Positions 34,604 to 60,800 of a stretch of 64,000 bases of DNA are shown in pieces; position 1 is the stretch's first letter, and the number at the start of each line of letters is the position of its first letter. A program made the position numbers and the translations under genes. The notes under the pieces are model-generated. The model made no database searches, was not told the DNA's origin, and saw only the letters and a list, made by a program, of their open reading frames with translations. Location: the IMG/VR virus record IMGVR_UViG_3300034104_004745, positions 1-64,000 of that record; one strand, written 5' to 3'. This stretch comes from a virus (taxonomy: Duplodnaviria > Heunggongvirae > Uroviricota > Caudoviricetes).

Positions 34604-34654
34604 CTACATCTTAGTTTACCTAAAATATAGATGGAAATTATATAATAATAAAGT

Positions 34655-43625: not shown

Positions 43626-43626
43626 A

Positions 43627-43923
43627 ATGGCTAAGAGTAAAACAAAAAAACCGTGGGTGGTTGACTCTATGTTTAGATTAGAAGCACCACAAAGTGCTAG
43701 TTTCATAAGCATACCAAATAATGGAACCTTTAAAGATTGTGAATGGTGTTTTCAATTTGATGATAGTGACCCATTTGTATTCGCATCAACAAAACCTTTT
43801 TATGATGGGAAAGACGCTAAAATAAGTTTCACACTTACAAACCAAACAAACACAAATTTGGTCTTTAAAGACTCTAATACCGGCAAAGAATTTAAAATAT
43901 TCGCAAGAGAAAAACAGTTATGA
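43627..43923 (+). CDS. Hypothetical protein (98 aa) within the glycan operon.
   Basis: ORF with tight coupling (1-nt gap upstream, 4-nt overlap downstream). Confidence 0.45.
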   Translation: MAKSKTKKPWVVDSMFRLEAPQSASFISIPNNGTFKDCEWCFQFDDSDPFVFASTKPFYDGKDAKISFTLTNQTNTNLVFKDSNTGKEFKIFAREKQL

Positions 43924-45069: not shown

Positions 45070-45072
45070 ATT

Positions 45073-46068
45073 ATGAAAGTATTAATTACAGGTATTGCTG
45101 GACTACTAGGTTCCAGATTAGCAGATTACATCGTTGAAAATCATCCGGACGTTCATATAGTTGGTATTGATGATTTGAGTGGTGGGTATTATGAAAACAT
45201 TAACCCTAAGGTTCCGGAATTTAGAAAATTAAATTTAGTTACAGGTGATTTAGAAAGTTGCTTTGAGGAACATAAATTTGATTACGTCTATCATTTTGCA
45301 GCATATGCTGCTGAAGGGTTGTCACCATTTATTAGACAATACAATTATGAGAATAATTTGGTTGCTACAGCTAGAATAATTAACCAGTGTATTAAACACG
45401 AAGTAAAAAGATTAGTTTTTACTTCAACAATGGCGGTATATGGTCATGGTAATGGTAATATATTTGATGAATCTCAAATACCTCAACCGATAGATCCATA
45501 TGGTATTGCGAAATATGCGTGTGAAATGGATATTCAAGTTGCTGGTGAACAGCATGGGTTAGATTGGTGTATCATTCGTCCACATAATGTTTATGGTATT
45601 AAACAAAACATCTGGGATAAATACAGAAATGTGTTAGGTATTTGGATGTATCAACATATGAATGGCGAGCCAATGACAATCTTTGGTGATGGTGAACAAA
45701 AAAGAGCATTCAGTTATATTGATGATTGTTTAGATGGTTTGTGGAAAGCTTCTCAATTGCCACAATGCTCAAAGGAAGTTATTAATCTTGGTGGAACAAA
45801 ACATTACACGATCAATGAAGCTAACGCAGTATTAAAGCAAGTAATCAAAGATGGTGAAACTGTTTATAAAGAACAAAGACACGAAGTTAAAGCTGCCATA
45901 CCAACTTGGGCGAAATCTGTTGAGCTACTTGGTTATGAAGACAAGACATCTTTATATGATGGTTTAAAAACCATGTGGGAGTGGGCACAGAAACAACCTA
46001 ACAGAGAAAGATTTGTATGGGAATCATATGAATTAGATAAAGGAATTTATAGCTTTTGGAAAAAATAA
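45073..46068 (+). CDS. NAD-dependent nucleotide-sugar epimerase/dehydratase (extended SDR).
   Basis: Rossmann GIAGLLGSRL (GxxGxxG) and catalytic YGIAK (YxxxK). Confidence 0.8.
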   Translation: MKVLITGIAGLLGSRLADYIVENHPDVHIVGIDDLSGGYYENINPKVPEFRKLNLVTGDLESCFEEHKFDYVYHFAAYAAEGLSPFIRQYNYENNLVATARIINQCIKHEVKRLVFTSTMAVYGHGNGNIFDESQIPQPIDPYGIAKYACEMDIQVAGEQHGLDWCIIRPHNVYGIKQNIWDKYRNVLGIWMYQHMNGEPMTIFGDGEQKRAFSYIDDCLDGLWKASQLPQCSKEVINLGGTKHYTINEANAVLKQVIKDGETVYKEQRHEVKAAIPTWAKSVELLGYEDKTSLYDGLKTMWEWAQKQPNRERFVWESYELDKGIYSFWKK

Positions 46069-46072
46069 GAAT

Positions 46073-46654
46073 ATGAAAAAAATAGAATTTATTATCCCAA
46101 CGTATAATAGACCAGATAAATTAATGGTTATGTTATCATCAATAAAAGCACAATCTGTTGATTTATGGAAAGTGCATGTTGTTGCTGATGCTGTATATGA
46201 TGGGTATCAAGAAATAAAAGATTACTTTAAAAATGATGAGAGATTTATATTCTCTGAATTAAATGGCCCACACAAAGATTGGGGGCACACAGCTAGAAAC
46301 TATGGCTTAGAAAGAGCAGAAGAAGACTGGGTGGTGATGTCTGGTGACGATAACTATTATGTACCAATTTTCGTTGAGGCTTTTTTAGAATCGATTAAAT
46401 ATAGAAAAGATGTTAACTTTGTTCATTGTAACTTAGTACACAATTGGATTAACAATGAATACATCGGGTTATTATCAAGACCTCAAGTAAATGGTATTGA
46501 TATTGGTAACTTTATGACTAAAACAAAATTTGCGAAACAGATGAGATTAGATGTTACTAAAGTAAACGCTGACGGTATCTTTGTAGAAGAATACCTAGAA
46601 AAATTTAAGGGTAACATTATTCACATTCAAAAAATATTATATGTCCATAACTAA
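46073..46654 (+). CDS. Glycosyltransferase family 2 (GT-A fold).
   Basis: N-terminal EFIIPTYNRPDKL is the canonical GT2 start. SGDDNYY region. Confidence 0.6.
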   Translation: MKKIEFIIPTYNRPDKLMVMLSSIKAQSVDLWKVHVVADAVYDGYQEIKDYFKNDERFIFSELNGPHKDWGHTARNYGLERAEEDWVVMSGDDNYYVPIFVEAFLESIKYRKDVNFVHCNLVHNWINNEYIGLLSRPQVNGIDIGNFMTKTKFAKQMRLDVTKVNADGIFVEEYLEKFKGNIIHIQKILYVHN

Positions 46655-47762
46655 CATAACATTCGTTCTTGCTGTACTTGATAAATTAGATTTAACTAAG
46701 AACTGTTATTCTAGAATACGAGATCTATATCCCACCACACCATTTGTTATAAGTAGTGGTGGTTCAAGTGATGGTACAAAAGAATGGTTGTTAGAAATGT
46801 CCGAGAAAGATGAGAACCTAACAATTTTTCATGATGATGATAGGTTAGCATTTTCAGAAACTTACAACTCAGGAATCAAAATGGTCGATACCGAAAAATT
46901 AGTTTTGATTCACAATGATATGGTTATTGGTGAGGGGTTTTTAGAAGCTATAGAAAGGTTATTAAAACCAAATATGATGTTATCCTATACAACAATAGAA
47001 CCACCAATTTTTAAAGGACATCAAAGACCCGGAAAGGTATTAATTGATTTAGGTTCATCGTTTGATGATTTTGATTATTTTAATTTCAATGCGTATGTTA
47101 GTACACATAACAATAACGATGTTCTATATGATGGCGCAGTTTTCTTTATGAGTGGTTACAAAAAGATGTTTGAAGATGTTGGTTTTTTTGATGGGTTTAG
47201 CTTTGTACCTTGTTTCTGTGAAGATGATGATTTCATAATCAGGGCTAAGTTAAAAGGATATGAATTAAAAACTTGTGAGTCCGCGATCGTATATCATTTT
47301 GTTTCCCAAACGTCTAGATTTAGCGAAGAGTTTAAGAAAAATAGAGTTACCCATGAGGTTTCATCTATTAGAAACTTCGTAAGAAAATGGGGGATAACTA
47401 TAACTGTCTTTAATGAGCTACGCTACTGGGAAGAAAAAGAATTTAAGTATAAAACATTTTCAATGGGATTAATTACAAGAAACAAAAAAAGATTAATGGA
47501 TCTTGAACCGTTTTTTGATAAGATTGATCTGGGTGAAATACCTGAAGAATATATTGAGAATGAGCAAAAAAGAACTAGATACGATATTAGATCTAAATTT
47601 ACATTAACAGATACTGTGGATGTTGTTATAACTGAGGTTGATGAATTTACTGATGAAGATCTACAGACATTACGTAGACTAAGATTATCTATACCATATT
47701 ATGAACCAGGTGAATACCAAATAGGTAATATGTTGATACAAATAAAAAAGGAGCTTAATTAG
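46641..47762 (+). CDS. Glycosyltransferase family 2-like protein (373 aa).
   Basis: FVLAVLDK...YNSGIK...LIHNDMV architecture like GT2. Weaker match than 46073..46654. Confidence 0.45.
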   Translation: MSITNITFVLAVLDKLDLTKNCYSRIRDLYPTTPFVISSGGSSDGTKEWLLEMSEKDENLTIFHDDDRLAFSETYNSGIKMVDTEKLVLIHNDMVIGEGFLEAIERLLKPNMMLSYTTIEPPIFKGHQRPGKVLIDLGSSFDDFDYFNFNAYVSTHNNNDVLYDGAVFFMSGYKKMFEDVGFFDGFSFVPCFCEDDDFIIRAKLKGYELKTCESAIVYHFVSQTSRFSEEFKKNRVTHEVSSIRNFVRKWGITITVFNELRYWEEKEFKYKTFSMGLITRNKKRLMDLEPFFDKIDLGEIPEEYIENEQKRTRYDIRSKFTLTDTVDVVITEVDEFTDEDLQTLRRLRLSIPYYEPGEYQIGNMLIQIKKELN

Positions 47763-48290: not shown

Positions 48291-49298
48291 TTATAAAACC
48301 GTCAAAATAGCATAAGTTAACATAAAAGATATCCATATAACTAAAGCTTTTAGATAAGTTAAAAATCCAGTATGAAAGTACTTTTGACCTATCGGTAAAC
48401 ACTTATGTGATGGTGAAATTAGATATGCTGAATACTCTAATGTAAAGAATAAAACAAAGTACTGCATACCAAACACACTAGTTAATAAACTAACAATACC
48501 TGCATATTTTGCTGATGATCCAAGTAAGAATGATGCTACGAATCCTAACACAGAAACAATAAGAATATTTGACGGTGTACTATACTGTTTGATTATTAAT
48601 TCAATTTGTGAATAATATGATCCAACTAGGTTACCAAGAATGATTACTAAAGCAACTATCCAAATCAATTCCCAGTTAACATAGCCCATCAACTTACCCC
48701 AACTCTTAGAGTGATATACCAACCATAGTGTGAACCCAGTAAAGAATCCAAAATAATAATCAGTAAAGAAAACACACATCATGATGGTAACCAAGAATGG
48801 TATAACCACAAGATATATGTTCTTCCAATTAATTGGATCATCTTTAACTTCAATATCGATCTCATCATCATCTAATGATAGTATATAATAACTGATATAT
48901 AATCCTGAGATTAATAACAACGGCCAGATATATGACATAAACTGCACGTAAGTTAAACTTAGTACAGCCATTGGTATAATAACTGTTTTCTCTAACGGTG
49001 ACCATAGATAATAATGATGTGTTGCAAGGTAATCAATGATACCAAACTTCTTACGTTTCTTATTATCGACTGGTGCAATACTATTCAGCATAGATGCTGA
49101 CAATGCTACACGACCAGGTATAGGTAGAATACCACCGAATAGTGATACTAAGAATACCACCATCTTTTTAGATTTAACTTTTTGTTTAAGTAATCTAAAG
49201 ATGTCCATAAGGTACCCTCTTTCTTTGAGGATACCGGTTACGAACATAATGAATATTAAGTAGACAAGAAACTCTTGTCCTTTGATTAAAATCTCCAT
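48291..49298 (-). CDS. Polytopic inner-membrane protein (335 aa, about 9-10 TM segments); Wzy/EpsG-like polymerase or transporter candidate.
   Basis: Multiple hydrophobic segments. Overlaps the start of the OMP gene by 13 nt. Confidence 0.55.
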   Translation of the reverse strand: MEILIKGQEFLVYLIFIMFVTGILKERGYLMDIFRLLKQKVKSKKMVVFLVSLFGGILPIPGRVALSASMLNSIAPVDNKKRKKFGIIDYLATHHYYLWSPLEKTVIIPMAVLSLTYVQFMSYIWPLLLISGLYISYYILSLDDDEIDIEVKDDPINWKNIYLVVIPFLVTIMMCVFFTDYYFGFFTGFTLWLVYHSKSWGKLMGYVNWELIWIVALVIILGNLVGSYYSQIELIIKQYSTPSNILIVSVLGFVASFLLGSSAKYAGIVSLLTSVFGMQYFVLFFTLEYSAYLISPSHKCLPIGQKYFHTGFLTYLKALVIWISFMLTYAILTVL

Positions 49299-50170
49299 GC
49301 AAATATAATTGTGGTTCTAGATAATTTTGCGTCTTGATTAAGTCCTGGCATGTGTTCAATATTTAAATAACCTTTGTTACTAAAACGATATTGAACTAGA
49401 GGACCAAGATACCATTCTTGTGAACCACCATCAAAGTCGTTGTATCTAAACATATGTGAAACACCTAATGTTAAATCATTATTAATGATGTTAGCATATG
49501 ATGCGGTGTATGCATATTCATCTTCACGAAGTTCTTTGTTTCTAGATAAATTACCTTCATAGATTGCGTTGAAGCCCCATATACCACTTTTACCAATTCT
49601 ATCACCTAATAATAATTTAGGTTCAATACCCCAGTGACCGTCTAACATTTTGGTTTCCCAATACAATGTAGGATTACCCCATAGTTTGCCCCAATCAGCT
49701 AAAGCGTATCGAAACTCCCAGGAGAATCCTCTCCATTTAAATTGTTTATCACCATTGTAACCATCATACACAGTGTGTGAATATAAATCTAATTGCAATC
49801 GTTTACCTAAACCAAATGTAAACTCATCTCTCATTCTTATTTGAGCTGGACCATTTCTTCTTTGTCTAATATCAAACCACTTCTCATACATTGCTGTACC
49901 TGGAGGATTCATTACGTAAACTCTTGTAGATGCAAACATTCTCATTGTAGTCCAAAGTGGTTGACCATAAGGACCGACTTTGGTCATCAATGGTACTTTC
50001 TTTGCTGTAACAACGATCTCTTGTAATTGATTAGGGACACTGTCCGTTTGAACTTTTAAGGATTGTTCTGAACCTTTCTGAATTGCGCTACTACTATACT
50101 GTCCAAATGACATAGTGGTAGTCAACAATGACACTAACATTAGCGATAGTGTTTGAATTGTTTTTCTCAT
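49286..50170 (-). CDS. Outer-membrane beta-barrel protein with a signal peptide (294 aa).
   Basis: MRKTIQTLSLMLVSLLTTTMSFGQ signal. EIVVTAKK plug-like motif. Alternating amphipathic beta strands. C-terminal ...IFAWRF ending in an aromatic residue. Confidence 0.55.
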   Translation of the reverse strand: MRKTIQTLSLMLVSLLTTTMSFGQYSSSAIQKGSEQSLKVQTDSVPNQLQEIVVTAKKVPLMTKVGPYGQPLWTTMRMFASTRVYVMNPPGTAMYEKWFDIRQRRNGPAQIRMRDEFTFGLGKRLQLDLYSHTVYDGYNGDKQFKWRGFSWEFRYALADWGKLWGNPTLYWETKMLDGHWGIEPKLLLGDRIGKSGIWGFNAIYEGNLSRNKELREDEYAYTASYANIINNDLTLGVSHMFRYNDFDGGSQEWYLGPLVQYRFSNKGYLNIEHMPGLNQDAKLSRTTIIFAWRF

Positions 50171-50237: not shown

Positions 50238-50903
50238 TTATTTACCAATTAAAAATATACCTAAACCATTCCAAAAATCATCTGGATCTTCACCAGATGT
50301 GAACAGTTGTCTTGAGTGTAAAATGAATAAATTATTTTCCTCAACAAACTTTTCAAACGCACCACTATCCCAGTTCCAATCATCCATTATTATGATTGTT
50401 TCTTTTGATATGATTGGTAGAATGTTTTTTAAAGCAATGTATTGATCATGAAATTTAGTTTCACCATCATAAAAAATAATGTCGGGATTTGGTAGTGTTT
50501 TAAAATCAAACAATTGATAGTCGGTTTTATAAACAGATATCTTATCAACGTCTCCAAATTTTTTTACGTTAGATAAAAATTCTTCTTGTGGTAACACATC
50601 GATATTGTGTTTATAGTAGTTCCCCATTTTTTGACTAACCCCGCGTGGTGTTAGATTGGGTGACATAAAATTATCAATTGCTATTGAGTAGATATCATTA
50701 CCATATATTGCAGAACAAAATGTTGCGCCACGAAAAACACCTATCTCTAGATAGGTTGCACCATCAATGTCACAAATATTATTTAGAAACGATCTAACTT
50801 TATTACTGGTGATTCCATGAATATCCAAAATGTCTTGAGTTAATTTTGATACTTCAAGTTTACCCCATTCAATTGAATCGTCTATATGTTTAACTAAGTC
50901 CAT
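50238..50903 (-). CDS. Class I SAM-dependent methyltransferase (Methyltransf_24/CmcI-like), paralogous in fold to 44518..45069. The start is re-called to the ATG at 50903; the track starts at a GTG.
   Basis: GATYLEIGVFRGATFCSAIYGNDIYSIAIDNF motif I region. Confidence 0.55.
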   Translation of the reverse strand: MDLVKHIDDSIEWGKLEVSKLTQDILDIHGITSNKVRSFLNNICDIDGATYLEIGVFRGATFCSAIYGNDIYSIAIDNFMSPNLTPRGVSQKMGNYYKHNIDVLPQEEFLSNVKKFGDVDKISVYKTDYQLFDFKTLPNPDIIFYDGETKFHDQYIALKNILPIISKETIIIMDDWNWDSGAFEKFVEENNLFILHSRQLFTSGEDPDDFWNGLGIFLIGK

Positions 50904-51927
50904 ATGATTTTTTCTTATGATCTGCAACAATATCACAGTAATTACAATCCCAACATTGGAATTTACATTTCTTTATTTTATTTCTCCAACCCTTAAGTTC
51001 TTCGTGTGGTATACCATCCAAATATATCTCAGATGTTTTAGATAAAACACTTTTACCCGCAGCGTACGAATCAACAATCTCCATAGTTTCATCTAATCGA
51101 TTGAAGCTATCTCTACCATGCATTTTGAATACATCAATATATTCTAAGAATTCGTCAAACTCTTCTTTGAATGGTGGTATAGTTCCTGTCTTAAAAAAGA
51201 AAGCATTAATATCTTTCTCCCATTTGTGTTCACAAGTTACTTTAGAGATCTCGTGATGAAAGTATGGTAACTCATTATTAGTTCTAAGATTGTTATATGA
51301 ATAATGTTCATCCATGACTGGGCACCTTCCTAAACAACCTTCATTAACTAGTAATGATATTTTTACATATCTACCTTTCTCTTCGTAATATTTTAACTGA
51401 GCTCTTTTGATATTTTTTAATTCTTCAACATCTCTCATTAAAATCCTATCAAGATTAATGTAATCAAATCCTTGATCGGCGTTATACCAAAAGTCTTGTC
51501 CAGTTGCCACTTTTCTTAATATGGTATTTTTAATTTCCATCTCTGGAAAATGTTTCTTCAATCCCATTGCAACCCAATGACCATGTGGAATAGTTATACA
51601 TCTTAAACCCTTTTCGTATAAAGGTTTTAGATTATCAATAAACAATTTATAGTTATCGAATCTAGGAGAAACGTTTATGTTGTTGAATGTTGCACTGATG
51701 GAGATACCTAATGCTTTTTGAATGATCATTGCATTATCAAACACAATGTCTCTGTCTTCATCTCTGAACACCGCACCCATCGCATCTTGTGTAAATGGTG
51801 GGACTCTACAGGTAAAATAAATGTCATATATCCATTCCTTATTTCTTTCTAAGAACGGATAAAATTTATTCATGAACATATCTTCCGACATCATCGGATT
51901 AAGTGGTATAGAGAATATCTTTTTCAT
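50890..51927 (-). CDS. Cys-rich protein (345 aa) with a C-terminal CKFQCWDCNYC cluster; possible Fe-S or zinc partner of the adjacent radical SAM enzyme.
   Basis: EGCLGRCP and CKFQCWDCNYCD motifs. 1-nt overlap with the radical SAM gene. No canonical CxxxCxxC. Confidence 0.5.
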   Translation of the reverse strand: MKKIFSIPLNPMMSEDMFMNKFYPFLERNKEWIYDIYFTCRVPPFTQDAMGAVFRDEDRDIVFDNAMIIQKALGISISATFNNINVSPRFDNYKLFIDNLKPLYEKGLRCITIPHGHWVAMGLKKHFPEMEIKNTILRKVATGQDFWYNADQGFDYINLDRILMRDVEELKNIKRAQLKYYEEKGRYVKISLLVNEGCLGRCPVMDEHYSYNNLRTNNELPYFHHEISKVTCEHKWEKDINAFFFKTGTIPPFKEEFDEFLEYIDVFKMHGRDSFNRLDETMEIVDSYAAGKSVLSKTSEIYLDGIPHEELKGWRNKIKKCKFQCWDCNYCDIVADHKKKSYGLS

Positions 51928-52928
51928 TATTTGTTACCTTCTAGACATCCACCACATATACCATTACAATCGCTCTTATAAAAGACACAATCTAAACAGT
52001 CTTGCGGTATAGTATAATTTTTATGATTATCGGTGTAAAGTTTATCAAACTCATCCCTTAAATCTAATATACCACTTTTAGCTGATATTTCCAAAACATT
52101 ATCAATCTTTACCTTATCTTGTAGTGGATAACAATGAATTGAACTTCCATCCGGGAAGACATCCAGTGGCATAAATCCACATATAGTATCATATTCAGGG
52201 ATTTTAAATGTTGCAAAGTTCAAAGAATTTTCTAAAACAGCTTTCTTTGTTTTACCCTCCCATAAACATGGCGGAACTTGACAATCTGAAGTGATCTTAA
52301 TACCGTTATATAAGCCGAATTTAAGGATCTTAGTAATCTCTGCACCCATTTCCCTATTATTGATAAGATAGGTCCCTGTGAGGTCTAATCCGACCCTTAT
52401 TGCGTTTATTTTACCATCAAGCTCGTGGTATAACCATTTGATGTATTCATAGAAGTTTCTATCCTTCCAATCTTTGGACATCGTTACAGCTAAATAAAGT
52501 CTAGGATTAGTATCAAACCCCCAGGTATTGGCATATGCTTTGTAAATTTCTAGGTAGTTCTTTTTAAATAAAACTATTCTATTTTTTTCATTAAGCTCTG
52601 CAGCATTAGGAAACACCCAGCGGATATTTTTGATATTTTCTATTAGATAATCTCTTGTTGTTTTACTAAACAAAAAATTACTAACAAGATTCACCTTAAT
52701 ATTTTTAGAAAAGAGGTGATCCAAAATACCAATAAAATTTGAATGCTGTGTTGGTTCCCCACCTAGAATTGTTATTTCTTCTTGGGGTGATTGTAAATTA
52801 TAATGGTTGATAAGTTTATCAACCATTTCTATTGACATTTCGCCTAAGGTATGTTTTAGTCTTGCGTCTTCTTTGGTGAAGCAGAATGAACATCCTTTAG
52901 CACATGTACCATTAATTGCTAAATTCAT
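51927..52928 (-). CDS. Radical SAM enzyme with a C-terminal SPASM-like Cys-rich domain.
   Basis: CAKGCSFC (C-x3-C-x2-C), the GGEPT SAM-binding motif, and C-terminal CLDCVFYKSDCNGICGGC. Confidence 0.75.
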   Translation of the reverse strand: MNLAINGTCAKGCSFCFTKEDARLKHTLGEMSIEMVDKLINHYNLQSPQEEITILGGEPTQHSNFIGILDHLFSKNIKVNLVSNFLFSKTTRDYLIENIKNIRWVFPNAAELNEKNRIVLFKKNYLEIYKAYANTWGFDTNPRLYLAVTMSKDWKDRNFYEYIKWLYHELDGKINAIRVGLDLTGTYLINNREMGAEITKILKFGLYNGIKITSDCQVPPCLWEGKTKKAVLENSLNFATFKIPEYDTICGFMPLDVFPDGSSIHCYPLQDKVKIDNVLEISAKSGILDLRDEFDKLYTDNHKNYTIPQDCLDCVFYKSDCNGICGGCLEGNK

Positions 52929-52938
52929 TAAAAAGCTT

Positions 52939-53679
52939 TTAGAAATCCATTCTCAATGTAAGAGGCGTTGTTGAAACGTTCTCGTCCTCTTTTTGTTGTT
53001 TACTCATTGCTACACCAAACTTCTCGTGTTTCAGTCTATGACAATCAGCGATAGTTTGACAAGCTTTAATTCTTTCTTCTAATAATTGTTGTTCCAATAG
53101 TAAGTTAGCTAACTTGGTATTGTAGTCTGTCACATTATTAATAATTTTTTGAACGAACGTGGCTTTATCTATCCCTCTACCTGTTGATAATATATCGATG
53201 ATTGGTGTTTGATAATCACTATCAGCAACCCAACCAAACGCTTCTCTCTTTTGTTCTTCCCATGTATCTTTTTCTAACATAGAAGCATCTACCATTAATT
53301 CTCTATATCTTTCAGAAAATCTATCAGCAACAAGTTTCTTCATAACCGCTTTATTAAAAGCAACACCGGCCGCTCTGTCTTCATCAGTCAAATAATGTTT
53401 AACTTTTTCTTCATCTGTTTCGCCAGATTCAGCTAACTGAGGAATCTCATCCATGATGTGTGAATTGGTTCTAACACTAATATAATCTTTGTAGATATCA
53501 GCGAATACAAAACCTTTAGCCACTTCTTCTGGAATAACAGCAGCGCCAAGTCGATTAAGTTCAACTCTCATATCATTATATTCATCAGCGATTTTACCAT
53601 AGTTGTAATTTAAATACATTCCTACAATTTGAATGTAGCCTGGTACGTTACCCTGTAGTTTAAAAATTATATGTGTCAT
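52939..53679 (-). CDS. Hypothetical protein (246 aa) in the tail-fibre module.
   Basis: ORF. Confidence 0.5.
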   Translation of the reverse strand: MTHIIFKLQGNVPGYIQIVGMYLNYNYGKIADEYNDMRVELNRLGAAVIPEEVAKGFVFADIYKDYISVRTNSHIMDEIPQLAESGETDEEKVKHYLTDEDRAAGVAFNKAVMKKLVADRFSERYRELMVDASMLEKDTWEEQKREAFGWVADSDYQTPIIDILSTGRGIDKATFVQKIINNVTDYNTKLANLLLEQQLLEERIKACQTIADCHRLKHEKFGVAMSKQQKEDENVSTTPLTLRMDF

Positions 53680-54440
53680 TATAATAGTTTTTCAGTTTCA
53701 ATATTATTTGAATTATCTAATCTTAATTGATTTTTTAATGATTCTTCAATTGAGAAATTATTTGTTGTTGCTTGTGTCATCAAGTGATTGATGTTTCTAT
53801 CAATTGATATTGTATATGCAGATGCTAAACTTAAAACTTGTTTCTGTTGTTCTGGATCCATCATAAGAATCGAATCTAAGTTACCTGTTCCAATTCTACC
53901 ATATGAAATCATATCAAGCATAGCTTGTTTAGCCATACGAACTGTCCAATACTCATGCTCAAATTTTTCTTCTAGTTCTGGATTACCAAACACATCAATT
54001 AATTTTGTCCCATCCGGAAGAATTGCTGCTTCTGTTTCTAAAAATTCTTTAATTAAATCAATAAACCCTTGTCTTTCTCTGTATGCGTCTTTTAGATTTC
54101 TCTTAAACTTTCTTAAGTCAATAAGTTTATCAGCAACAGTTAAATCAACCATTTCTTTTCTTTTTGGGTCAGTAATAAATTCTTTACTTTCCTCATCCAT
54201 TTGAATTTCAAGTTCAGCTTTTCTTACTGTATATTCAAGGTGTTCAACAGCGTCCTCTCTACCTCTTAATTCCAATAACCACTGTTTTAATTTAGCATAT
54301 GACGTTATTTGTGCTCCACCAACGAAATTATATGCTTTGTACTTTGGTAGTGCAAAAGACATACTTTCTGAAATCTTCATTAATTTTTCATCAAACGGGT
54401 TGTTTAAATTTTGTTCTCTGTCATATTTGTAACCTTCCAT
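53679..54440 (-). CDS. Hypothetical protein (253 aa). The start is re-called to the ATG at 54440; the track start at 54488 is a TTG.
   Basis: The ATG at 54440 is preceded by TATATTATACAAAAAC, a copy of the start-proximal motif. Confidence 0.5.
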   Translation of the reverse strand: MEGYKYDREQNLNNPFDEKLMKISESMSFALPKYKAYNFVGGAQITSYAKLKQWLLELRGREDAVEHLEYTVRKAELEIQMDEESKEFITDPKRKEMVDLTVADKLIDLRKFKRNLKDAYRERQGFIDLIKEFLETEAAILPDGTKLIDVFGNPELEEKFEHEYWTVRMAKQAMLDMISYGRIGTGNLDSILMMDPEQQKQVLSLASAYTISIDRNINHLMTQATTNNFSIEESLKNQLRLDNSNNIETEKLL

Positions 54441-54488
54441 AAATAAATTGTTTTTGTATAATATAAGTAAAATATTTCGTATTGTCAA

Positions 54489-55604
54489 CTATTGCCTCCA
54501 ACCACAGTGCCCTGAAGATGTTCCAGCGTTAACTGCTGGATTTAACCCAGTCACACTAGAAGTACCGGTATCCGCAGCATAGTAGAACTTCCAACTAACA
54601 TTGTTTTGACCACCCCCATCATAACAACCCAACATATACTGCCAATCTTGTCCCAACGTAAAGTTTTCTTCACCACAGTTAGGATGAGGTTTAGATACAT
54701 TCCCAATATTAGTATCGTTAGCATTGCTCCATCTTCTTAAATTATATCCTCCATTATAACTTCCCTCATTACCACAATATCCCTTTCCATGTTTGGAACT
54801 AATACCTTTTTGTTGTGCATGCGCACCCCATTGAGTAGATGATGTTGGGGTTTCATTTGAAAAATTAAATTTTATTCCAGCAGATGTTGTCCACGCATAC
54901 CCAAAATTTTCATCGAAAAATGCACCACCACCATCAGAACCATTAATTGATGTTACACCAAACCCACTTACATAACTTTCATTTGTAAGATTAAATTTTT
55001 CTATTGTGGTCGATCCTCCCGAAATTAGATAAGCCATTTCAGTTTCTTTTTGCATGGTTGCAACGTCACTTCTAGCAATACCCGTATTGAATTTTGTTTG
55101 ATGTGCATAATTTGTATCTGTCATCATATTAATTGCTGATGTCCTTGTACCATGAACACTATCGGGGCCCTTCCACGCACCATCATCATTAACCGACCAT
55201 TGAAAGAAAATATTTTTACTACAAGCACCAGATGTATATGATATAGGGTAATCTAATATTTCACCAATATGGGTTGTTTGATCAATAAGATTCACTGTTT
55301 TGTGTACGTTTTTCCATGGTGAAGCGTCTTTATAACCGCCAGCTAAATAAGAATAATTAATCACTTGTCTATATCTGAAAGCTGTTGGTTGTGTTTCTTG
55401 GGCAGCGATTCTTTCCCAACCGTTATCAATATTTGATACACCAGTATAAAGCATTAAATAACTACTTCCACTAGTTGATGTTTCAAGGTATAATGAACCT
55501 GAACGAGGGTTTGATGGTCTGTTAGCTCTAGTACCTCTAGGAGGTCTATTAACAACTCTATCTGACCTTAAACTACCGCTTACTTCTAAATTCTCGTATA
55601 ACAT
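54489..55604 (-). CDS. Adhesin-like tail-fibre tip protein, paralog 1 of 3 (371 aa; conserved N-terminus SGSL...PRG.R.NRPS.P..GSLYLE and C-terminus GHCGWRQ).
   Basis: About 60-70% identity to the two downstream paralogs. Sits directly 3' of the long tail-fibre gene. Gly-rich, with many N-x-S/T sites. Confidence 0.65.
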   Translation of the reverse strand: MLYENLEVSGSLRSDRVVNRPPRGTRANRPSNPRSGSLYLETSTSGSSYLMLYTGVSNIDNGWERIAAQETQPTAFRYRQVINYSYLAGGYKDASPWKNVHKTVNLIDQTTHIGEILDYPISYTSGACSKNIFFQWSVNDDGAWKGPDSVHGTRTSAINMMTDTNYAHQTKFNTGIARSDVATMQKETEMAYLISGGSTTIEKFNLTNESYVSGFGVTSINGSDGGGAFFDENFGYAWTTSAGIKFNFSNETPTSSTQWGAHAQQKGISSKHGKGYCGNEGSYNGGYNLRRWSNANDTNIGNVSKPHPNCGEENFTLGQDWQYMLGCYDGGGQNNVSWKFYYAADTGTSSVTGLNPAVNAGTSSGHCGWRQ

Positions 55605-55618
55605 ATTATATTTTTATT

Positions 55619-56725
55619 TTATGATCTCCAACCACAATGGCCTGATGATGTTCCTCCATTTACTCCCGGCGCTAATCCGCTTACACTAGTAGTTCCAGTA
55701 TCAGTTGTGTAAGAAAACTTCCAACTTGTATTATTTTGTGCGCCATCATAATTTCCTAACATATATTGATGATCTTGCCCCATGGTAAAATTTTCTTCTC
55801 CACAGTTTGGATGTGGTTTTGAAACATTACCAATGTTAGTATCATTCGCGTTGCTCCATCTTCTTAGATTGTAACCCCCAGCATAACTACCCTCATTACC
55901 TGCATATCCTTTACCAACCTTAGAACTAATACCCTTTTGTTGAGAATGTGCTCCCCACATTCCAGTTGATGTAAATGTTTCGGAAGCAAAACTAAATTTT
56001 ATACCTGCCGCAGACGTCCACCCATAACCAAAATTTTCGTCAGAAAATGCCGAACCACCATCAGAACCATCAATTGTTGTTAAGTTGAACCCAGTCATTA
56101 TCGTTTCATTACTTAAATCAAACTTCTCAACAGTTGAGCTACCTCCAGTAAACATATATGCAAATTCTGTTTCTTTATGCATTGTACCTAAATCACTTCT
56201 ATTAGACGTGGTATTGAATCTAGCACTGTGAGCATAATTTGTGTCATTAGCCATATTAACCGCCGATGTTCTACTACTATGTACATCTCCGGGACCTTTG
56301 AATGTGTTGTCAGTGTTAACTGACCACACAAAGAAAATATATCTACTACAAGCTCCCGATGTATAAGATGCTGGATAATCCAATAACTCACCAATGTGTG
56401 ATGTTTGGTCTGTGGAATTTATTGTTTTATGTACGTTTTTCCATGGAGAAGAATTCTTATATCCACCAGCAAGATATGAAACAGCAATAATTTGTCTAAA
56501 CTTAAAACCAACATTAGAATTAACTTGTGAGGAAACTCTAACCCAACCATCGTCACCATTACTTAGTCCAGTATAGACCATAAGAAAACTACCACTAGCC
56601 GCTTCTTCAAGATACAAAGATCCTGTGACGGGGCTTGATGGCCTATTCCCTCTTGATCCTCTTGGTGGTTTCGATACACCTTGAACTCTTAAGGAACCAC
56701 TAATTTCTATATTATCGTGACGCAT
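55619..56725 (-). CDS. Adhesin-like tail-fibre tip protein, paralog 2 of 3 (368 aa; ...GHCGWRS).
   Basis: Tandem paralog. Confidence 0.65.
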   Translation of the reverse strand: MRHDNIEISGSLRVQGVSKPPRGSRGNRPSSPVTGSLYLEEAASGSFLMVYTGLSNGDDGWVRVSSQVNSNVGFKFRQIIAVSYLAGGYKNSSPWKNVHKTINSTDQTSHIGELLDYPASYTSGACSRYIFFVWSVNTDNTFKGPGDVHSSRTSAVNMANDTNYAHSARFNTTSNRSDLGTMHKETEFAYMFTGGSSTVEKFDLSNETIMTGFNLTTIDGSDGGSAFSDENFGYGWTSAAGIKFSFASETFTSTGMWGAHSQQKGISSKVGKGYAGNEGSYAGGYNLRRWSNANDTNIGNVSKPHPNCGEENFTMGQDHQYMLGNYDGAQNNTSWKFSYTTDTGTTSVSGLAPGVNGGTSSGHCGWRS

Positions 56726-56743
56726 ATTTTATAAATACTATTT

Positions 56744-57877
56744 TTAATTTCTCCAACCACAATGGCCTGATGATGTTCCCCCATTTACCCCAGGAGCTAA
56801 TCCAGAAGGATTAACAACACCTGTATCTGTTGCGTAAACAAATTTCCAGCTTGTGTTATTTTGTAAACCATCATAATTTCCTAACATATATTGGTGGTCT
56901 TGTCCCATAGTAAAGTTTTCTTCCCCACAGTTTCCATGTGGCTTTGCTACGTTACCAATATTGGTTTCATTAAACACATTCCATCTTCTCAAATTATAAC
57001 CACCATTATAATTCCCCTCATTTCCAGCATATCCTTTACCCCATTTGGAACTAATACCTTTTTGTTGACCGCTAGCACCCCACTGTTGGTTATTTGTAAA
57101 TGTGTCTGTTGCAAAATATAATTTGTTACCACTTTCCGACCCGTAACCATATCCATAATTTTCGTCTGAAAATCCAGAAGCACCTAATGAACTGGTAATA
57201 GATGTTTTTAATGTTAAGTATGGTTGCATATTAGGATAATATACACTATACATAACTTCATTAGTTAAATTGAATTTTTCAACTGTGGCCACACCACCAC
57301 CAAATACCCACGCAAATTCTGTCTCTTGAAATAATGTTCCAAGGTCATCCCTAGCGTTTGCTAAATCCCATTTTGATTGGTGCGCATATGCGGTTTCATT
57401 AACCATATGAACCCCAGTTGTCCAAGTTGAATGTATTTGTGTTGCCGATTTCCATGCGCCATCCGTATTAGTTGACCAAACAAATAATATAGATTTACTA
57501 CAAGCTCCGGATGTATACGATGCTGGATAATCCATTAATTCACCTAAGTGAACTGTTTGATCTGTCGCGTTAGTTGTTCTATGAACATTTTTCCAAGGAG
57601 AAGAATCTTTATAACCGCCAGCCAAGTATGAAAAGTTAATAATTTGTCTATATAAAAAACCAATTCTATCTGTATTTTGTGAGCCAACAGGTTCCCATCC
57701 ATCATCTCTATTTGATGCGGCTGTGTATGTAACAACAAAACTTCCACTGCTAGATTCTTCAAGATAAAGAGACCCTATTTCTGGGCTAGATGGTCTATTA
57801 GCTCTTGGCCCTCTAGGTATTATATATTGTCCACTAACATCTAAAGAGCCACTAACAATTACATTTTCTCTTAACAT
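56744..57877 (-). CDS. Adhesin-like tail-fibre tip protein, paralog 3 of 3 (377 aa; ...GHCGWRN).
   Basis: Tandem paralog with a divergent middle segment (VMYSVYYPNMQPYLTLKTSITSS). Confidence 0.65.
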   Translation of the reverse strand: MLRENVIVSGSLDVSGQYIIPRGPRANRPSSPEIGSLYLEESSSGSFVVTYTAASNRDDGWEPVGSQNTDRIGFLYRQIINFSYLAGGYKDSSPWKNVHRTTNATDQTVHLGELMDYPASYTSGACSKSILFVWSTNTDGAWKSATQIHSTWTTGVHMVNETAYAHQSKWDLANARDDLGTLFQETEFAWVFGGGVATVEKFNLTNEVMYSVYYPNMQPYLTLKTSITSSLGASGFSDENYGYGYGSESGNKLYFATDTFTNNQQWGASGQQKGISSKWGKGYAGNEGNYNGGYNLRRWNVFNETNIGNVAKPHGNCGEENFTMGQDHQYMLGNYDGLQNNTSWKFVYATDTGVVNPSGLAPGVNGGTSSGHCGWRN

Positions 57878-57894
57878 ACTTTAATATACGTATT

Positions 57895-60800
57895 TTATCC
57901 GGTAACAACAAGTCTTCCTGTTCTATTTGCAGCAAAAGTTACTGTAACAGTTGTTGATGTTATGTTTATTTCAGAAGGGAAGAACATATTATCACTACTA
58001 TCAAATACTTGGGCAGTTAAATTCGCTGTTCCTAAATTATGTGTAAAGCTAACGCTCGATACGTTTGAGAAAGTTGTTGAATTACTCATTGCCACTCTCT
58101 TCCATGATGCCCAGGTTCCATTGTTTTTCCCTCTAACATACATTATACCAGTTCTATAATCGCCATAAATTTGATGTTGCCAACTTGAACTATATATTTG
58201 TGAATATAATGCACCGTCTGTTGAGTTACCTGTTAAATTAGTTGAACTACCGTCAACGTTAGTTACATACGTTGTACCATTAGAATCTAACGTATTGGCA
58301 TTTACACCGGAAGTATTAGTATTTCTAAACCCAATACTATCAATTTGATCTGCGGTTGTTGCGCTTGTTGCGTTACCTGAAAATGTTGTTGCTGTTATAG
58401 TTCCGCCAGCAACTGTTAAATTACCCGCAATCCATACATTTCCTGTATTTCCATGTACCGCCATGTTTGTGGATCCATTACCTACAAAGACGTATTCATT
58501 TGGGTTAGTACTATTTGACCAAATATTACCTGGGCCACCAGTACCGTTGGTTCCATATTGAGCACCACTATTTCCAGCCCAAAATAATCCCCAACCATTA
58601 TTACTACCAGGTGTACCGGCCACATTCACCATCCATCCAGAATAATCTTGACTAAATCTAAATGGTGCAAAATTATCGCCACTACCGGTACTACCTACAT
58701 ATCCACTTATATACCCCGCGGACATTAATAAGTTACCACTAAATGTTTTATTTCCTCCGATTGTTTGGTCACCAGTTGTATAAACACCATTTGTTACTGT
58801 GGACGCATTACCAGAAAGTGCTCCCGAAAACGTTGGGGCAGTTACAGTACCAGGGAAAGATGTGTTACCACTAGCATCTAATAATGTTGCGGTTCTTGTT
58901 AAAGTAGAGAACGTTCCAGAATATTGTCTAACATGTATTGGTTCAGTAGCATCATCGGCTGTTGCGATTTCAACAAATCCAGAGTTTGATGCACCACCAA
59001 CTCTAATTCTAAAGAAGTCGTTGTCTGCTATTGTAGAATATAATAAATTAGCTTCACTACCTGCAGATACTGTTCTAATAACTTCGGTTGCGGTTGCAGC
59101 ATTACCAGTTGTATTCTGATTACCCGCGGTGTTTACCCCTGGTAAATCAATATTTGCTGAACCATTAAATGAAACACCACCTATGTTTCTTGCTGTGGCT
59201 AATATTGTTGCGGTTGCGGCGTTACCTGTTGTGCTTTGGTTCCATGTTGGAATATTACCCGCGTGATAAACCACGTTACCACCATATGTTAATGCGCCTG
59301 TACTTGCTCTACCTAAAGCTGTTGTATCACCATTACCAAAAACAATATAACCATTAGCAGCATTTTGCACACCCTGTATTCTAAATGTGTTGGCTGCATT
59401 TATATCTCCAATCCAAACATCATCACCAATTCTAAAGTTGGTACCATTACCATTATTACTTGTAATAACTTGATCAAATGTTGGGGCAGCAGTTGTAGCT
59501 ACTGATTGACCTATTGAAACTGTAACTGAACCGGTTGTTGTATCAACACCAACACCAGTTCCTGCGTTAACTGCAGTTACTTTCGCTGCGGTATATGCTG
59601 TACCAATAGATGAACCATTCCAAGTTCCAGAACTAATTGTTCCAGAAGAAACTGTTAATCCATTTATTGTACCTGTAACAACTAAGTTACCTGTGGCACT
59701 TTGTAGTGTCATTAATTCAACAGAACCGTTGGAATACCAGCCAAATTTAGGTGTGTTTCCAGTATTTGAATAAGCAGCCAAATTTGGTATATGCATCGAT
59801 AACGTTCTATTCGCAATATCGGAAGCTAATCCCATACCGTATGCTCCTGAACTTGCACCTCTCGCACCGAAACCGTACATGTACCAATCGGCAGTTGCAC
59901 TATTAATTATATTAGCACTAAATGTTTTTGTTCCACCAATTGTTTGATCACCGGTTGTATAAACACCATTTGTTACTGTACCCGCATTACCATCAACAGA
60001 AACACCTGTTAAAGTTTGAGATGCTGATGCTCTACCTAATGATATTGACGTTGTACCAATATTAAAAGATGAGTTTGCTAATTTAGTATTACTAACTGAC
60101 CCATCTACTAATTGAGATGCGTTAATTGTTTTGTTTGTTAACGTTTGGCTTGCGGTTCTTAATACAATATCATCTTCAGAGCCTAATGGGCCTGCGATCC
60201 ATTTATCATTAGAAGTGTCCCACAATAAAGATCCTGAAGTTAATGTTGACGCTGTTGCATCTCTAACAACAAGACCTGCATTTGTTGCGCCAGTACCATT
60301 TAATTGAATAATATTATCTGCAATATTAACAGTTGTCGAGTTTACGGTTGTTGTTGTTCCAGAAACTGTAAAGTTTCCTCTAACTGTAACATCTGCACCA
60401 CTTAAACTAAACGCACTATTAAATGAACTAGTAAATGTATTTAAACTACTTGTTGCTGTATTAATAGCATTGATAGCTGTTGTGTTAGAACTAGTGTAAC
60501 TATTTAAACTACTTGTTGCAGTATGAATTGCATTTATATTTGTAGTGTTACTACTTGTGTAACTGTTTAAACTTGCAGTTGCTGTATGAATTGCATTGAT
60601 ATTAGTTGTATTAGAACTAGTATATGAATTCAATGATGCTGTAGTGGATTCAATTGCACTTAATCTTCCACTTGCACTACTTGTAAATGTATTTAATGAA
60701 CCAGTACTTGTTTCAATTAAACCTAATCTAGTATTTTGAGTTGAATTGGTTGTGTTATTAGAACTTGTATATGAATTAAAATCTGTTCTAATTGATCCAC

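Follow-up and report, generated by a model that had tools for sequence, protein, structure and literature searches.

An optional radical SAM enzyme with a divergent SPASM-type domain in a widespread phage cassette of a U32-like protein and an O-methyltransferase

The radical SAM enzyme encoded beside the fibre genes of a virus of the class Caudoviricetes is an optional element that only some lineages of a widespread phage cassette have gained, its gene being inserted between those of p246 and the U32-like enzyme. This cassette consists of one to three adhesin-like proteins, the proteins termed here p269 and p246, the U32-like enzyme (CysTIM), an O-methyltransferase that is often fused to it and, frequently, a DUF401 transporter. 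The conserved enzymatic core is formed by CysTIM and the O-methyltransferase, not by the radical SAM enzyme. It is tentatively proposed that the radical SAM enzyme was added to a cassette whose enzymes modify an adhesin-like protein, an explanation that as a whole we regard as somewhat short of probable. The window, i.e., the whole stretch of 64,000 nucleotides that was analysed (IMG/VR record IMGVR_UViG_3300034104_004745, positions 1 to 64,000), has no near DNA match to any cultured phage, and its 749-aa ORF gave no tblastn match. The list of open reading frames confirmed all coordinates of the initial annotation and placed every gene of the block on the minus strand:

57895..63750, minus strand: giant repetitive fibre-like protein of 1951 aa, which heads the block (ORF)
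54489..57877, minus strand: three paralogous adhesin-like proteins of 371, 368 and 377 aa with the phrog_1417 domain, ending SSGHCGWR[Q/S/N]
53679..54488, minus strand: p269, helical cassette protein of phrog_1409 (PHROG match)
52939..53679, minus strand: p246, cassette protein of phrog_1604 (PHROG match)
51927..52928, minus strand: radical SAM enzyme of 333 aa, RRE-less, whose C-terminal domain is SPASM-like but divergent
50890..51927, minus strand: CysTIM, Cys-rich TIM-barrel protein of 345 aa, U32-like, with seven invariant Cys; putative Fe-S enzyme
50238..50903, minus strand: SAM-dependent methyltransferase, probably of the catechol/TrmR (YrrM) O-methyltransferase type (Pfam, PHROGs and PDB profile search)
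49286..50170, minus strand: outer-membrane beta-barrel-like protein of 294 aa with an N-terminal signal peptide and the C-terminus ...AWRF
48291..49298, minus strand: DUF401/TIGR00529 membrane protein of the ion-transporter superfamily (Pfam DUF401)
30697..31026, minus strand: A-type Fe-S carrier (IscA/HesB; Pfam Fe-S_biosyn), about 20 kb from the cassette

The assignment of the 333-aa protein to the radical SAM enzymes was borne out. It contains CxxxCxxC (C9-x3-C13-x2-C16) and GGEPT (G56-G57-E58-P59-T60), its residues 8-87 match Pfam Radical_SAM (PF04055; 36.9 bits against a cut-off of 29.5, E 5e-9), and both the GGE-type SAM-binding motif and the partial TIM-barrel fold are present. Nine further cysteines are conserved: among 31 homologues, down to about 28% identity, ten are invariant (C9, C13, C16, C216, C221, C250, C266, C311, C314 and C321), and C325 and C328 are conserved in at least 90%. 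The reference SPASM motif comprises seven cysteines, CX9-15GX4C, a gap, CX2CX5CX3C, a second gap and a final C. The enzyme shows C250-x10-G261-x4-C266 followed by C311-x2-C314-x6-C321-x3-C325, the first half of which fits this motif and the second half of which is one residue longer than the canon; judging from the alignment, the extra conserved C216, C221 and C328 could provide the remaining cluster ligands. The SPASM-like C-terminal Cys cluster that had been proposed is confirmed in conserved cysteines that come close to the motif, and the fold agrees, but every SPASM sequence profile stays silent. Neither PF13186 (E up to 0.1) nor TIGR04085 matched the whole protein, PF13186 found none of 17 C-terminal domains of the family scanned alone (E up to 10) and is missing from the precomputed Pfam annotation of all 98 homologue clusters, and the profile of the C-terminal domain recovered no SPASM chain from the PDB. 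The predicted structure is confident and its best structural matches are the SPASM enzymes anSME and SuiB, which modify proteins or peptides; the likeness reaches beyond the radical SAM core, and alignment of the full-length profile with SuiB (8-316) and TigE (2-319) is weak but runs from end to end. By motif and fold, this is a radical SAM enzyme of divergent sequence that lacks an RRE and has a SPASM-type domain, which would hold two auxiliary [4Fe-4S] clusters.

The layout without an N-terminal RRE domain, in which the radical SAM motif begins at residue 9, is anSME-like. However, identity to anSME (anSMEcpe 4K36, AtsB) is only 14%, the Cys spacing differs by the one residue mentioned above, and the anSME target (C/S)-x-(P/A)-x-R is missing from the candidate tails of the adhesin-like proteins (e.g., SSGHCGWR and SSGTGGWRD), whose Cys is itself dispensable. 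No SPASM or anSME profile matched the enzyme; among NCBIfam matches there was no anSME model, and weak N-terminal similarity was seen to the cofactor-maturase model TIGR04317 (27.7 bits against a cut-off of 380). The RiPP SPASM maturases (SuiB, CteB, TigE, ChlB, SkfB and PqqE) have an RRE/PqqD domain of their own or recruit one, and their substrates are short precursor peptides from nearby genes, whereas no short precursor ORF lies beside the radical SAM gene described here, which is flanked by the genes of p246 (10-nt spacer) and of the 345-aa protein. The stop codon of the radical SAM gene and the start codon of the latter share one base (TAATG), in agreement with the translational coupling noted before.

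This 345-aa partner, CysTIM, is indeed Cys-rich, with seven invariant cysteines arranged as C198-x3-C202-x29-C232 and a separate C-terminal C321-x3-C325-x2-C328-x2-C331. It had been described as a protein of no recognisable family, which holds for curated sequence profiles only, since CysTIM matches phrog_1458 (E 1e-94) and has a U32-like fold. Structure prediction for 50890..51927 gave a TIM barrel, (beta-alpha)8 of U32 type, and two methods agree on the one U32 'peptidase' of solved structure (Mk0906, 5D88) as its best structural match. The Pfam U32 profile (PF01136/IPR001539) matched neither CysTIM of the window nor 29 family members nor 10 remote relatives. The [4Fe-4S] cluster of U32 proteins is ligated by the four-Cys motif CX6CX15CX3C (PMC11574389), a spacing that does not occur in CysTIM. 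When 88 CysTIM family members were aligned with four E. coli U32 proteins by hhalign, the probability was 50.5% (P 1.6e-4, 107 columns); it was 27.6% with a smaller CysTIM alignment and about 1% or less against single UbiU or UbiV sequences. Colinear motifs are shared with UbiU, i.e., FKMHGR with VKIEGR (K-[IM]-[EH]-G-R) as well as WRxxIxxCK, and greedy extension of the alignment placed C198/C202/C232 opposite UbiU C176/C193/C232, at near-zero column confidence. CysTIM is thus a putative Fe-S enzyme with a U32-like TIM barrel, a fold to which the Fe-S hydroxylases UbiU/UbiV, TrhP and RlhA also belong. With these U32 'oxidases' it shares the fold and a conserved Cys triad after the late strands of the barrel, and tandem CysTIM paralogues in one Syntrophaceae contig echo UbiU/UbiV. 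It differs from them by CX3CX29C in place of CX6CX15CX3C, by the extra C-terminal CX3CX2CX2C cluster, by the absence of the C-terminal domains of TrhP and RlhA, and by a genomic company (adhesin, p269 and p246) unlike that of any known U32 system.

The methyltransferase encoded downstream scores barely at threshold against Pfam Methyltransf_24 (26.4 against a cut-off of 26.3) and matches positions 302-519 of phrog_1458, the same PHROG as CysTIM. Its profile found B. subtilis YrrM/TrmR as the best relative in the PDB (5zw3, E 1.2e-3; next 3ntv, E 0.13), and the JGI name for the fused homologues is 'predicted O-methyltransferase YrrM'. Starting from the ATG at 50903, the methyltransferase gene has a 14-nt overlap with the CysTIM stop, as in the related locus L003, and in most relatives CysTIM is fused to the downstream O-methyltransferase. 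In the yrrMNO operon, a U32 enzyme is known to be paired with an O-methyltransferase (PMC6599085). CysTIM is paired with a catechol-type O-methyltransferase as TrhP1/2 are with TrmR, and is also fused to it.

That fusion of a hydroxylase with an O-methyltransferase is the majority architecture, that U32 and TrmR-type O-methyltransferase genes form a known operon, that the best solved relative is the tRNA ho5U methyltransferase itself and that every characterised U32 enzyme with a macromolecular substrate modifies RNA may all suggest a nucleic-acid substrate. The two enzymes would then make 5-hydroxy- or 5-methoxy-pyrimidine (cf. TrhP plus TrmR, RlhA) in host or phage tRNA, in rRNA or in phage DNA, the radical SAM enzyme would add a further base modification and the proximity to fibre genes would be incidental. 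This alternative is considered rather unlikely. An RNA- or DNA-binding domain is missing, the window contains no tRNA gene, CysTIM has neither the C-terminal domain of TrhP nor a Pfam U32 match, and the tight linkage to p269 and the adhesin domain, found even in an unrelated jumbo phage, would be left unexplained. SPASM enzymes, moreover, are not known to modify RNA.

The distribution of the cassette shows that the radical SAM enzyme is optional. CysTIM was detected by tblastn in 126 cultured-phage records; the radical SAM enzyme gave zero matches in 50,697 phage records, including all of these 126, and its gene was found in none of 80 sampled IMG/VR loci of the fused CysTIM-methyltransferase form. 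More than 90% of CysTIM genes have no radical SAM partner. Since it is missing from the 126 records and from 80/80 fused-form loci, the enzyme cannot be the central maturase of the module; of the peptide- or protein-maturase architecture assigned to it earlier, the kinship with protein and peptide modifiers stands. Where the gene is present, its surroundings are constant: CysTIM is the downstream neighbour in all 75 loci selected by the radical SAM gene in which the contig continues, p246 is encoded immediately upstream in 69 of the 79 whose contig reaches that far, and the order is unchanged at 74%, 54% and 42% identity of the radical SAM enzyme. The initial annotation placed the gene between methyltransferases and fibre or adhesin genes. 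The block that it shares with fibre and adhesin-like genes is conserved, but the opposite-strand glycosyltransferase/methyltransferase cluster is not conserved beside it in the 42%-identity relative L006. The fibre-like protein of 1951 aa keeps its position in relatives L003-L005.

The pair of CysTIM and methyltransferase travels with p269, usually with p246, and with adhesin-like proteins, and the set was found in cyanomyoviruses, in many IMG/VR contigs and in the Ralstonia jumbo phage RP12, there without p246 or methyltransferase. p269 and the adhesin domain were each present in 56 of 56 sampled loci with upstream sequence. RP12 shows the order collagen-repeat protein, ORF142, ORF141, p269 homologue, CysTIM and DUF401; ORF142 matches the adhesin domain weakly (hhalign probability 65%), ORF141 has no assignment, and the neighbours include no counterpart of the methyltransferase or of the 294-aa protein. 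Some phage contigs carry CysTIM alone. Bacterial homologues of CysTIM (Smithella/Syntrophaceae, Bacteroidales) have no adhesin, p269 or p246 beside them; they neighbour sulfotransferase, PAPS synthesis, GNAT and ATP-grasp genes, and no single pathway is common to these contexts. A comparable setting is known from pelagimyophages, large marine T4-like phages in which variable gene cassettes with radical SAM genes accompany fibres and glycosyltransferases in a hypervariable host-recognition cluster (Zaragoza-Solas et al., 2020, PMC7029224). The presence of those radical SAM genes was noted there with no family, partner or function, and it is in their setting that they resemble the gene of the window.

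One may ask if the radical SAM enzyme serves CysTIM itself, as its dedicated maturase or activase, installing or remodelling a cofactor or a catalytic residue, with no third-party substrate. Wherever the radical SAM gene occurs it adjoins that of CysTIM, the two are translationally coupled, the seven invariant cysteines of CysTIM include the C-terminal CX3CX2CX2C knot, and the weak N-terminal similarity to TIGR04317 would be in line with it. Yet that match lies far under its cut-off, more than nine in ten CysTIM genes function without the radical SAM gene, and CysTIM sequences from loci with this gene retain the same invariant residues, which makes such a role very improbable.

The adhesin-like proteins are homologous to P-SSM4 gp032 (E 1e-22) and were found by tblastn in 123 phage records, with cyanophage counts identical to those of CysTIM (77 Synechococcus, 38 Cyanophage and 8 Prochlorococcus). 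The label 'adhesin' is suggested by position and by domains in relatives (He_PIG in L006); against the PDB, the adhesin domain gave coiled-coil noise or no match. The motif SS[G/A] marks the whole family: it is present in 167 of 167 distinct tails and usually lies six residues from the C-terminus, exactly so in 125 of 156 short-tailed proteins. The conserved Cys of the GHCGWR tails had been named as a candidate target of the radical SAM enzyme, which did not hold, as the L006/L007 lineage keeps the enzyme though its three adhesin tails have no Cys. A tail Cys is present at 36 loci without the radical SAM gene and is thus neither necessary nor sufficient for it. A GWR-type tail at first appeared to mark the enzyme, being seen in three lineages with it and not in cyanophages, until many of 80 further loci without it were found to end in SSGHCGWRD, SSGHCFWRD or SSGIGGWRD. 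In a raw Fisher test, a tail Cys was commoner in loci with the radical SAM gene (odds ratio 8.8); this enrichment was rejected as evidence because these loci form only about three lineages, one of which (L006/L007) is Cys-free. No adhesin residue tracks the presence of the enzyme once phylogeny is considered.

Phage fibres are often matured by C-terminal cleavage, and the invariant SS[G/A] resembles a processing site. The U32-like protein might then be a true peptidase that trims the adhesin tail after SS[G/A], with the radical SAM enzyme and the methyltransferase acting on the new terminus or being unrelated to it; the collagen-repeat protein of RP12, two genes upstream of CysTIM's partner, would recall the historical U32 name 'collagenase'. 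This is held to be highly doubtful, as the seven invariant cysteines and the methyltransferase fusion indicate redox or methylation chemistry, no residues have been defined as catalytic for a peptidase, and U32 peptidase activity is poorly substantiated in a family now understood as Fe-S oxidases.

Among the remaining proteins, p269 accompanies CysTIM in phages more faithfully than any other; it shares 33% identity with P-SSM4 gp034 and is homologous to RP12 ORF140 (hhalign probability 100%), and p246 is 32% identical to P-SSM4 gp033. Beyond their PHROGs, neither could be assigned to a protein family, and neither has a relative in the PDB, where searches gave at most coiled-coil noise, and the idea that p269 or p246 are chorismate-mutase-like suppliers of prephenate found no support. 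The A-type Fe-S carrier claimed earlier was confirmed (Pfam Fe-S_biosyn, PF01521; 57.6 bits against a cut-off of 26.3, E 1.7e-15) with its ligand cysteines visible (GGGC37SG and C101-G-C103-GESF), and it may be linked to the cassette. The DUF401 protein (Pfam E 4.8e-9) is 38% identical to RP12 ORF138, encoded directly after CysTIM in that phage; all 12 phage records with this protein also have CysTIM, and in 28 of 75 fused-form loci its gene is found no more than 10 kb downstream. The 294-aa protein belongs to no Pfam or NCBIfam family, and 30 of 34 close relatives keep its gene downstream of that of the methyltransferase. Literature searches on DUF401, U32 in cyanophages, SPASM in virions and a 'sericin-like' protein found nothing relevant. 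That the operon also encodes a transporter and a putative outer-membrane protein suggests a small molecule. The radical SAM enzyme, CysTIM and the methyltransferase could tailor a sugar, a quinone or another metabolite as an auxiliary metabolic function, in which the two membrane proteins import or export the metabolite and the latter may feed the neighbouring glycosyltransferases that remodel the host surface. We consider this small-molecule alternative unlikely. A virion protein is our leading guess as to the substrate.

By analogy to UbiU/UbiV plus UbiG and to TrhP plus TrmR, the preferred explanation is that CysTIM would hydroxylate an sp2 carbon without O2 and the O-methyltransferase would cap the newly made hydroxyl. 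In the clade of the window, the radical SAM enzyme would abstract a hydrogen atom from the same substrate and add one more modification, which might be a crosslink, oxidation or epimerisation. As substrate, the adhesin-like protein whose gene lies immediately upstream would be most likely, probably modified in its conserved C-terminal tail, where Cys would not be an obligatory site. Protein modification by the module is plausible, and its chemistry is proposed by analogy. The earlier proposal of virion-protein modification is kept as plausible, but its Cys does not hold as a required target. Several points weigh against this explanation. Synteny in phage structural modules can be inherited without functional coupling, the nearest solved relative of the methyltransferase methylates tRNA, and curated profiles miss both the SPASM and the U32 membership. 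The bacterial homologues without adhesin, p269 and p246 and the phage contigs with CysTIM alone count in the same direction. The substrates of U32 enzymes so far are quinone precursors and RNA bases, never proteins (PMC11574389). A more specific form, according to which CysTIM and the O-methyltransferase modify the SS[G/A]-x6 adhesin tails by O2-independent hydroxylation and O-methylation, the radical SAM enzyme assists in some lineages and p269 and p246 may take part, is judged a minority prospect, rather improbable as it stands.

In over 120 genomes of cultured marine phages, the enzymatic core of the cassette carries no annotation other than 'hypothetical protein', and IMG/VR contigs contain hundreds of its relatives. 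Cultured cyanophages that have been studied well, among them P-SSM4, Syn19, S-RIM2 and P-HM2, have the cassette, and the fusion of a U32-like enzyme to an O-methyltransferase, with an optional radical SAM enzyme, offers concrete hypotheses testable in these phages. If an adhesin were the substrate, host recognition by abundant ocean phages would depend on O2-independent protein chemistry that is new to viruses, and virion maturation of this kind would provide the first protein substrate of a U32 enzyme and the first radical SAM or U32 modification of a phage virion protein. If RNA, DNA or a metabolite were modified, it would be a new auxiliary function riding with fibre genes. With either substrate, the poorly explored U32 family and the SPASM sequence space are extended past the reach of current curated profiles.

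The entire block, as read from the ORFs of the window, lies on the minus strand with the fibre gene first in transcription order:

57895..63750 (-), giant repetitive fibre-like protein of 1951 aa
56744..57877, 55619..56725 and 54489..55604 (-), ORFs of three adhesin-like paralogues of about 370 aa, ending SSGHCGWR[N/S/Q]
53679..54488 (-), p269, a cassette protein without assigned function, after the adhesin paralogues
52939..53679 (-), p246, likewise without assigned function, between p269 and the rSAM gene
51927..52928 (-), rSAM, the radical SAM enzyme, between p246 and CysTIM
50890..51927 (-), CysTIM, a Cys-rich TIM-barrel protein of 345 aa, 3' of rSAM
50238..50903/50936 (-), methyltransferase, 3' of CysTIM
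49286..50170 (-), 294-aa protein with a signal peptide and a C-terminal ...AWRF, 3' of the methyltransferase
48291..49298 (-), DUF401/TIGR00529 transporter-like membrane protein, at the end of the operon

The initial annotation had placed rSAM and its Cys-rich partner correctly, and the translational coupling that it proposed is seen in the one-base overlap of the rSAM stop and the CysTIM start (TAATG). The methyltransferase ATG overlaps the CysTIM stop by 14 nt, and the spacer between p246 and the rSAM gene is 10 nt only. The phage IscA-type carrier, named there as a possible source of clusters, is genuine according to profile search, but it is encoded 20 kb from the block and no specific tie to the block was found.

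The composition of the cassette emerges from comparison of homologous loci. In tblastn searches CysTIM matched 126 phage records (77 Synechococcus, 38 Cyanophage, 8 Prochlorococcus and 3 Ralstonia) and an adhesin paralogue matched 123, with cyanophage counts identical to those of CysTIM; rSAM gave no match in cultured-phage records. The order in P-SSM4 is gp032 (adhesin domain, 29% identical), gp033 (p246), gp034 (p269) and gp035, the last being CysTIM fused to methyltransferase. In the Ralstonia jumbo phage RP12 the gene of a collagen-repeat protein is followed by ORF142, ORF141 (unassigned), a homologue of p269 (probability 100%), CysTIM (43% identical) and, directly 3' of CysTIM, DUF401 (38% identical); ORF142 has a weak match to the adhesin profile (65% probability in hhalign), shares the GGYKDS and NFGE...GFMMAGY motifs with adhesins and ends in SSGQMMQGF. 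Where rSAM is present, the order adhesins, p269, p246, rSAM, CysTIM, methyltransferase is constant at 74%, 54% and 42% rSAM identity. Two IMG/VR samples were analyzed, one of 80 loci chosen by rSAM and one of 80 chosen by fused CysTIM-methyltransferase. In the former, CysTIM is directly downstream in all 75 loci with continuing contig and p246 directly upstream in 69/79, and in the latter rSAM was found in 0/80. Cofactor maturation of CysTIM by rSAM, a rival reading, is considered unlikely. The fused-form loci with upstream sequence contain p269 (56/56), the adhesin domain (56/56) and p246 (48/56), and DUF401 is located within 10 kb downstream in 28/75; all 12 phage records with DUF401 are CysTIM-positive. 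The synteny in cultured phages, IMG/VR loci and RP12 therefore defines the adhesin domain, p269 and CysTIM as the conserved unit, which is usually accompanied by p246 and methyltransferase and often by DUF401, with rSAM as a sporadic insertion at a single fixed position.

The rSAM protein (333 aa) is indeed a radical SAM enzyme, with a Pfam Radical_SAM score of 36.9 bits (gathering score 29.5) over residues 8-87 only; NCBIfam models give only weak N-terminal matches, every one far under cut-off. Among 5.8 billion proteins searched, 98 homologue clusters were recovered, ranging in identity from 86% down to 29% and largely of environmental metagenome origin, with no precomputed SPASM Pfam domain in any of them (0/98). 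When 31 sequences from these clusters were aligned, ten Cys proved invariant (C9, C13, C16, C216, C221, C250, C266, C311, C314 and C321), as did GGEPT, and C325 and C328 are conserved in at least 90%. C250-x10-G-x4-C266 agrees with the SPASM motif in its first half, and C311-x2-C314-x6-C321-x3-C325 is the canonical CX2CX5CX3C plus one residue. Structural comparison gave anSMEcpe (18.5), SuiB (18.1), ChlB (17.6), TigE (17.2), CteB (16.6), BlsE and viperin (15.8 each), PqqE (15.6) and SkfB (15.5); SuiB and TigE also align weakly but end to end with the full-length rSAM profile, and the C-terminal domain alone gives no match to the SPASM Pfam model or to a SPASM chain in the PDB. The SPASM architecture claimed initially can thus be recognised from fold and, with the one extra residue, from motif, and fails at the level of sequence profiles, the domain being SPASM-like and outside all curated sequence models. 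Since CxxxCxxC begins at residue 9, rSAM is without an RRE domain, and its layout therefore resembles that of anSME and not that of RiPP maturases. A 75-kb metagenomic contig (L008, 1766..12714) carries nine consecutive radical SAM genes, one of them a 32%-identity relative of rSAM, with no CysTIM partner.

The partner had been described as belonging to no recognisable family, which holds for Pfam and NCBIfam, where no model matches, but not for PHROGs, where CysTIM matches phrog_1458 (E 1e-94), nor for its U32-like fold. The phrog_1458 profile has 519 positions, the second half of which is covered by the methyltransferase, the two being a single fused protein in most relatives. The CysTIM family is large, with over 1029 clusters when sequences are grouped at 90% identity and 532 representatives when they are grouped at 50%, and it has seven invariant Cys (C198, C202, C232, C321, C325, C328 and C331). 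Its model is a beta/alpha barrel (pLDDT 82.8, with low confidence precisely at the Cys loops), for which two methods rank the U32 fold first, one of them Foldseek (E 2.9e-7; runner-up 5.6e-6). When an 88-member CysTIM alignment was compared by hhalign with E. coli UbiU, UbiV, TrhP and RlhA, 107 columns were aligned at 50% probability (P 1.6e-4); a permissive extension is colinear across 270 columns and sets FKMHGR against the U32 hallmark VKIEGR, WRNKIKKCK against VWRQAIDRCK, and C198/C202/C232 opposite the UbiU cluster ligands C176/C193/C232. However, the curated U32 profile finds no match in CysTIM, 29 family members or 10 remote relatives, and the published Cys spacing CX6CX15CX3C (PMC11574389) is not that of CysTIM, so the protein is called U32-like and not a family member. 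For the methyltransferase, the closest solved relative by profile is B. subtilis YrrM/TrmR (E 1.2e-3), an O-methyltransferase that caps the hydroxyl put in by the U32 enzymes TrhP1/TrhP2, encoded together with it in the yrrMNO operon (PMC6599085). The combination of a U32-type hydroxylase with an O-methyltransferase acting after it is thus a known one, and in the CysTIM family the two are usually fused. RNA being among the known U32 substrates, one may ask if the cassette enzymes modify nucleic acid, which is given a low probability.

The adhesin tails bear on the proposal that rSAM acts on the Cys of GHCGWR. SS[G/A] is found in all 167 distinct tails from loci L001-L188 (ASG in a few), lying within 14 residues of the C-terminus in 156/167 and at exactly six residues in 125 of these 156; it is usually continued by x-C-x-W-[RK]-x, and Trp follows in 134 tails. 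Cys two residues past SS[G/A] is common and not tied to rSAM: the L006/L007 lineage, which has rSAM, has tails without Cys (SSSGTGGWRD, SSSGNYGYRD and ASSGAGAWRD), and 36 loci without rSAM have the Cys. The proposed Cys is thus not an obligatory target. An enrichment of tail Cys with rSAM (raw odds ratio 8.8) was rejected as evidence, since only about three rSAM-positive lineages underlie it. Tails of this type mark the cassette as a whole and not rSAM in particular, and SS[G/A] looks like a processing or recognition site for cassette enzymes. Proteolysis of the tail is a doubtful reading.

Against a protein substrate stand bacterial CysTIM homologues without adhesin, p269 and p246, CysTIM alone on some phage contigs, and quinones and RNA as known U32 substrates. 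In Syntrophaceae/Smithella MAG contigs (L013/L020, 1..1972; L019, 3949..14258) the homologues adjoin sulfotransferase, TauE, CysD, CysNC, GNAT and ATP-grasp genes, and such PAPS-synthesis and other neighbours suggest that bacteria employ the same enzyme in a pathway for a small molecule or glycan; one of these loci has two tandem CysTIM copies, echoing the pair UbiU/UbiV. In a Bacteroidales chromosome the neighbours are a NusG-like gene, an AraC-type regulator, UPF0489 and an S41 peptidase. A small molecule is also hinted at, against a protein, by DUF401, of an ion-transporter superfamily, and by the 294-aa protein, whose ...AWRF end resembles an outer-membrane barrel; as pure speculation, DUF401 might transport a substrate or O-donor such as the dicarboxylate prephenate. 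Tailoring of a metabolite or glycan by the cassette enzymes is judged improbable.

Other features of the window are the following:

41011..47762 (+), divergent glycosyltransferase cluster with two GT4-type, three GT2-type, an NAD-dependent sugar epimerase/dehydratase and a methyltransferase
37922..39109 (-), thymidylate synthase-like ORF, unusually long (395 aa), with apparent internal insertions in the translated sequence
33206..36568 (-), two adjacent large paralogue-like ORFs of 465 and 637 aa
24316..27414 (-), 1032-aa protein with a metallo-endopeptidase/endolysin-like domain at residues 170-295

The glycosyltransferase cluster adjoins the block in 74%-identity relatives and not in L006. 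The paralogue-like ORFs have several stretches in common, among them YPKKKYLKQNDWKFIPAILDQYGIK and YPTKKFLKKNDNKLVAAILDRIGIK, as well as a C-terminal motif with Cys/His, and they gave only a weak match, to a PHROG without assigned function. Metallo-endopeptidase/endolysin domains of this kind occur in tape-measure or virion-associated lysins. The window has a GC content of about 32%, no near DNA match among 50,697 phage records and no protein matches for several large ORFs; in IMG/VR, by contrast, rSAM genes of 75-96% identity are present on many contigs, some of them 170-330 kb long. The phage is a member of an uncultured, large-genome group, and a related contig (L016) was binned with a Bacteroidota MAG.

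In the papers that could be searched, no link of U32-like proteins or this rSAM family to phage fibres was found; the closest is a mention of radical SAM cassettes, left unnamed, within the host-recognition clusters of pelagimyophages (PMC7029224). No solved relative could be detected for p269, p246 or the adhesin domain, so that their roles are guesses. The initial observation holds, and its interpretation does so in part: a SPASM-type rSAM is encoded within the cassette, but the enzyme is optional there and the adhesin substrate putative. Tentatively, and at somewhat less than even odds, we favour a conserved cassette in which the U32-like Fe-S enzyme and the O-methyltransferase would supply the core chemistry, the divergent SPASM-type rSAM would add an optional further tailoring step, and the adhesin-like proteins would be the most likely candidate substrate.
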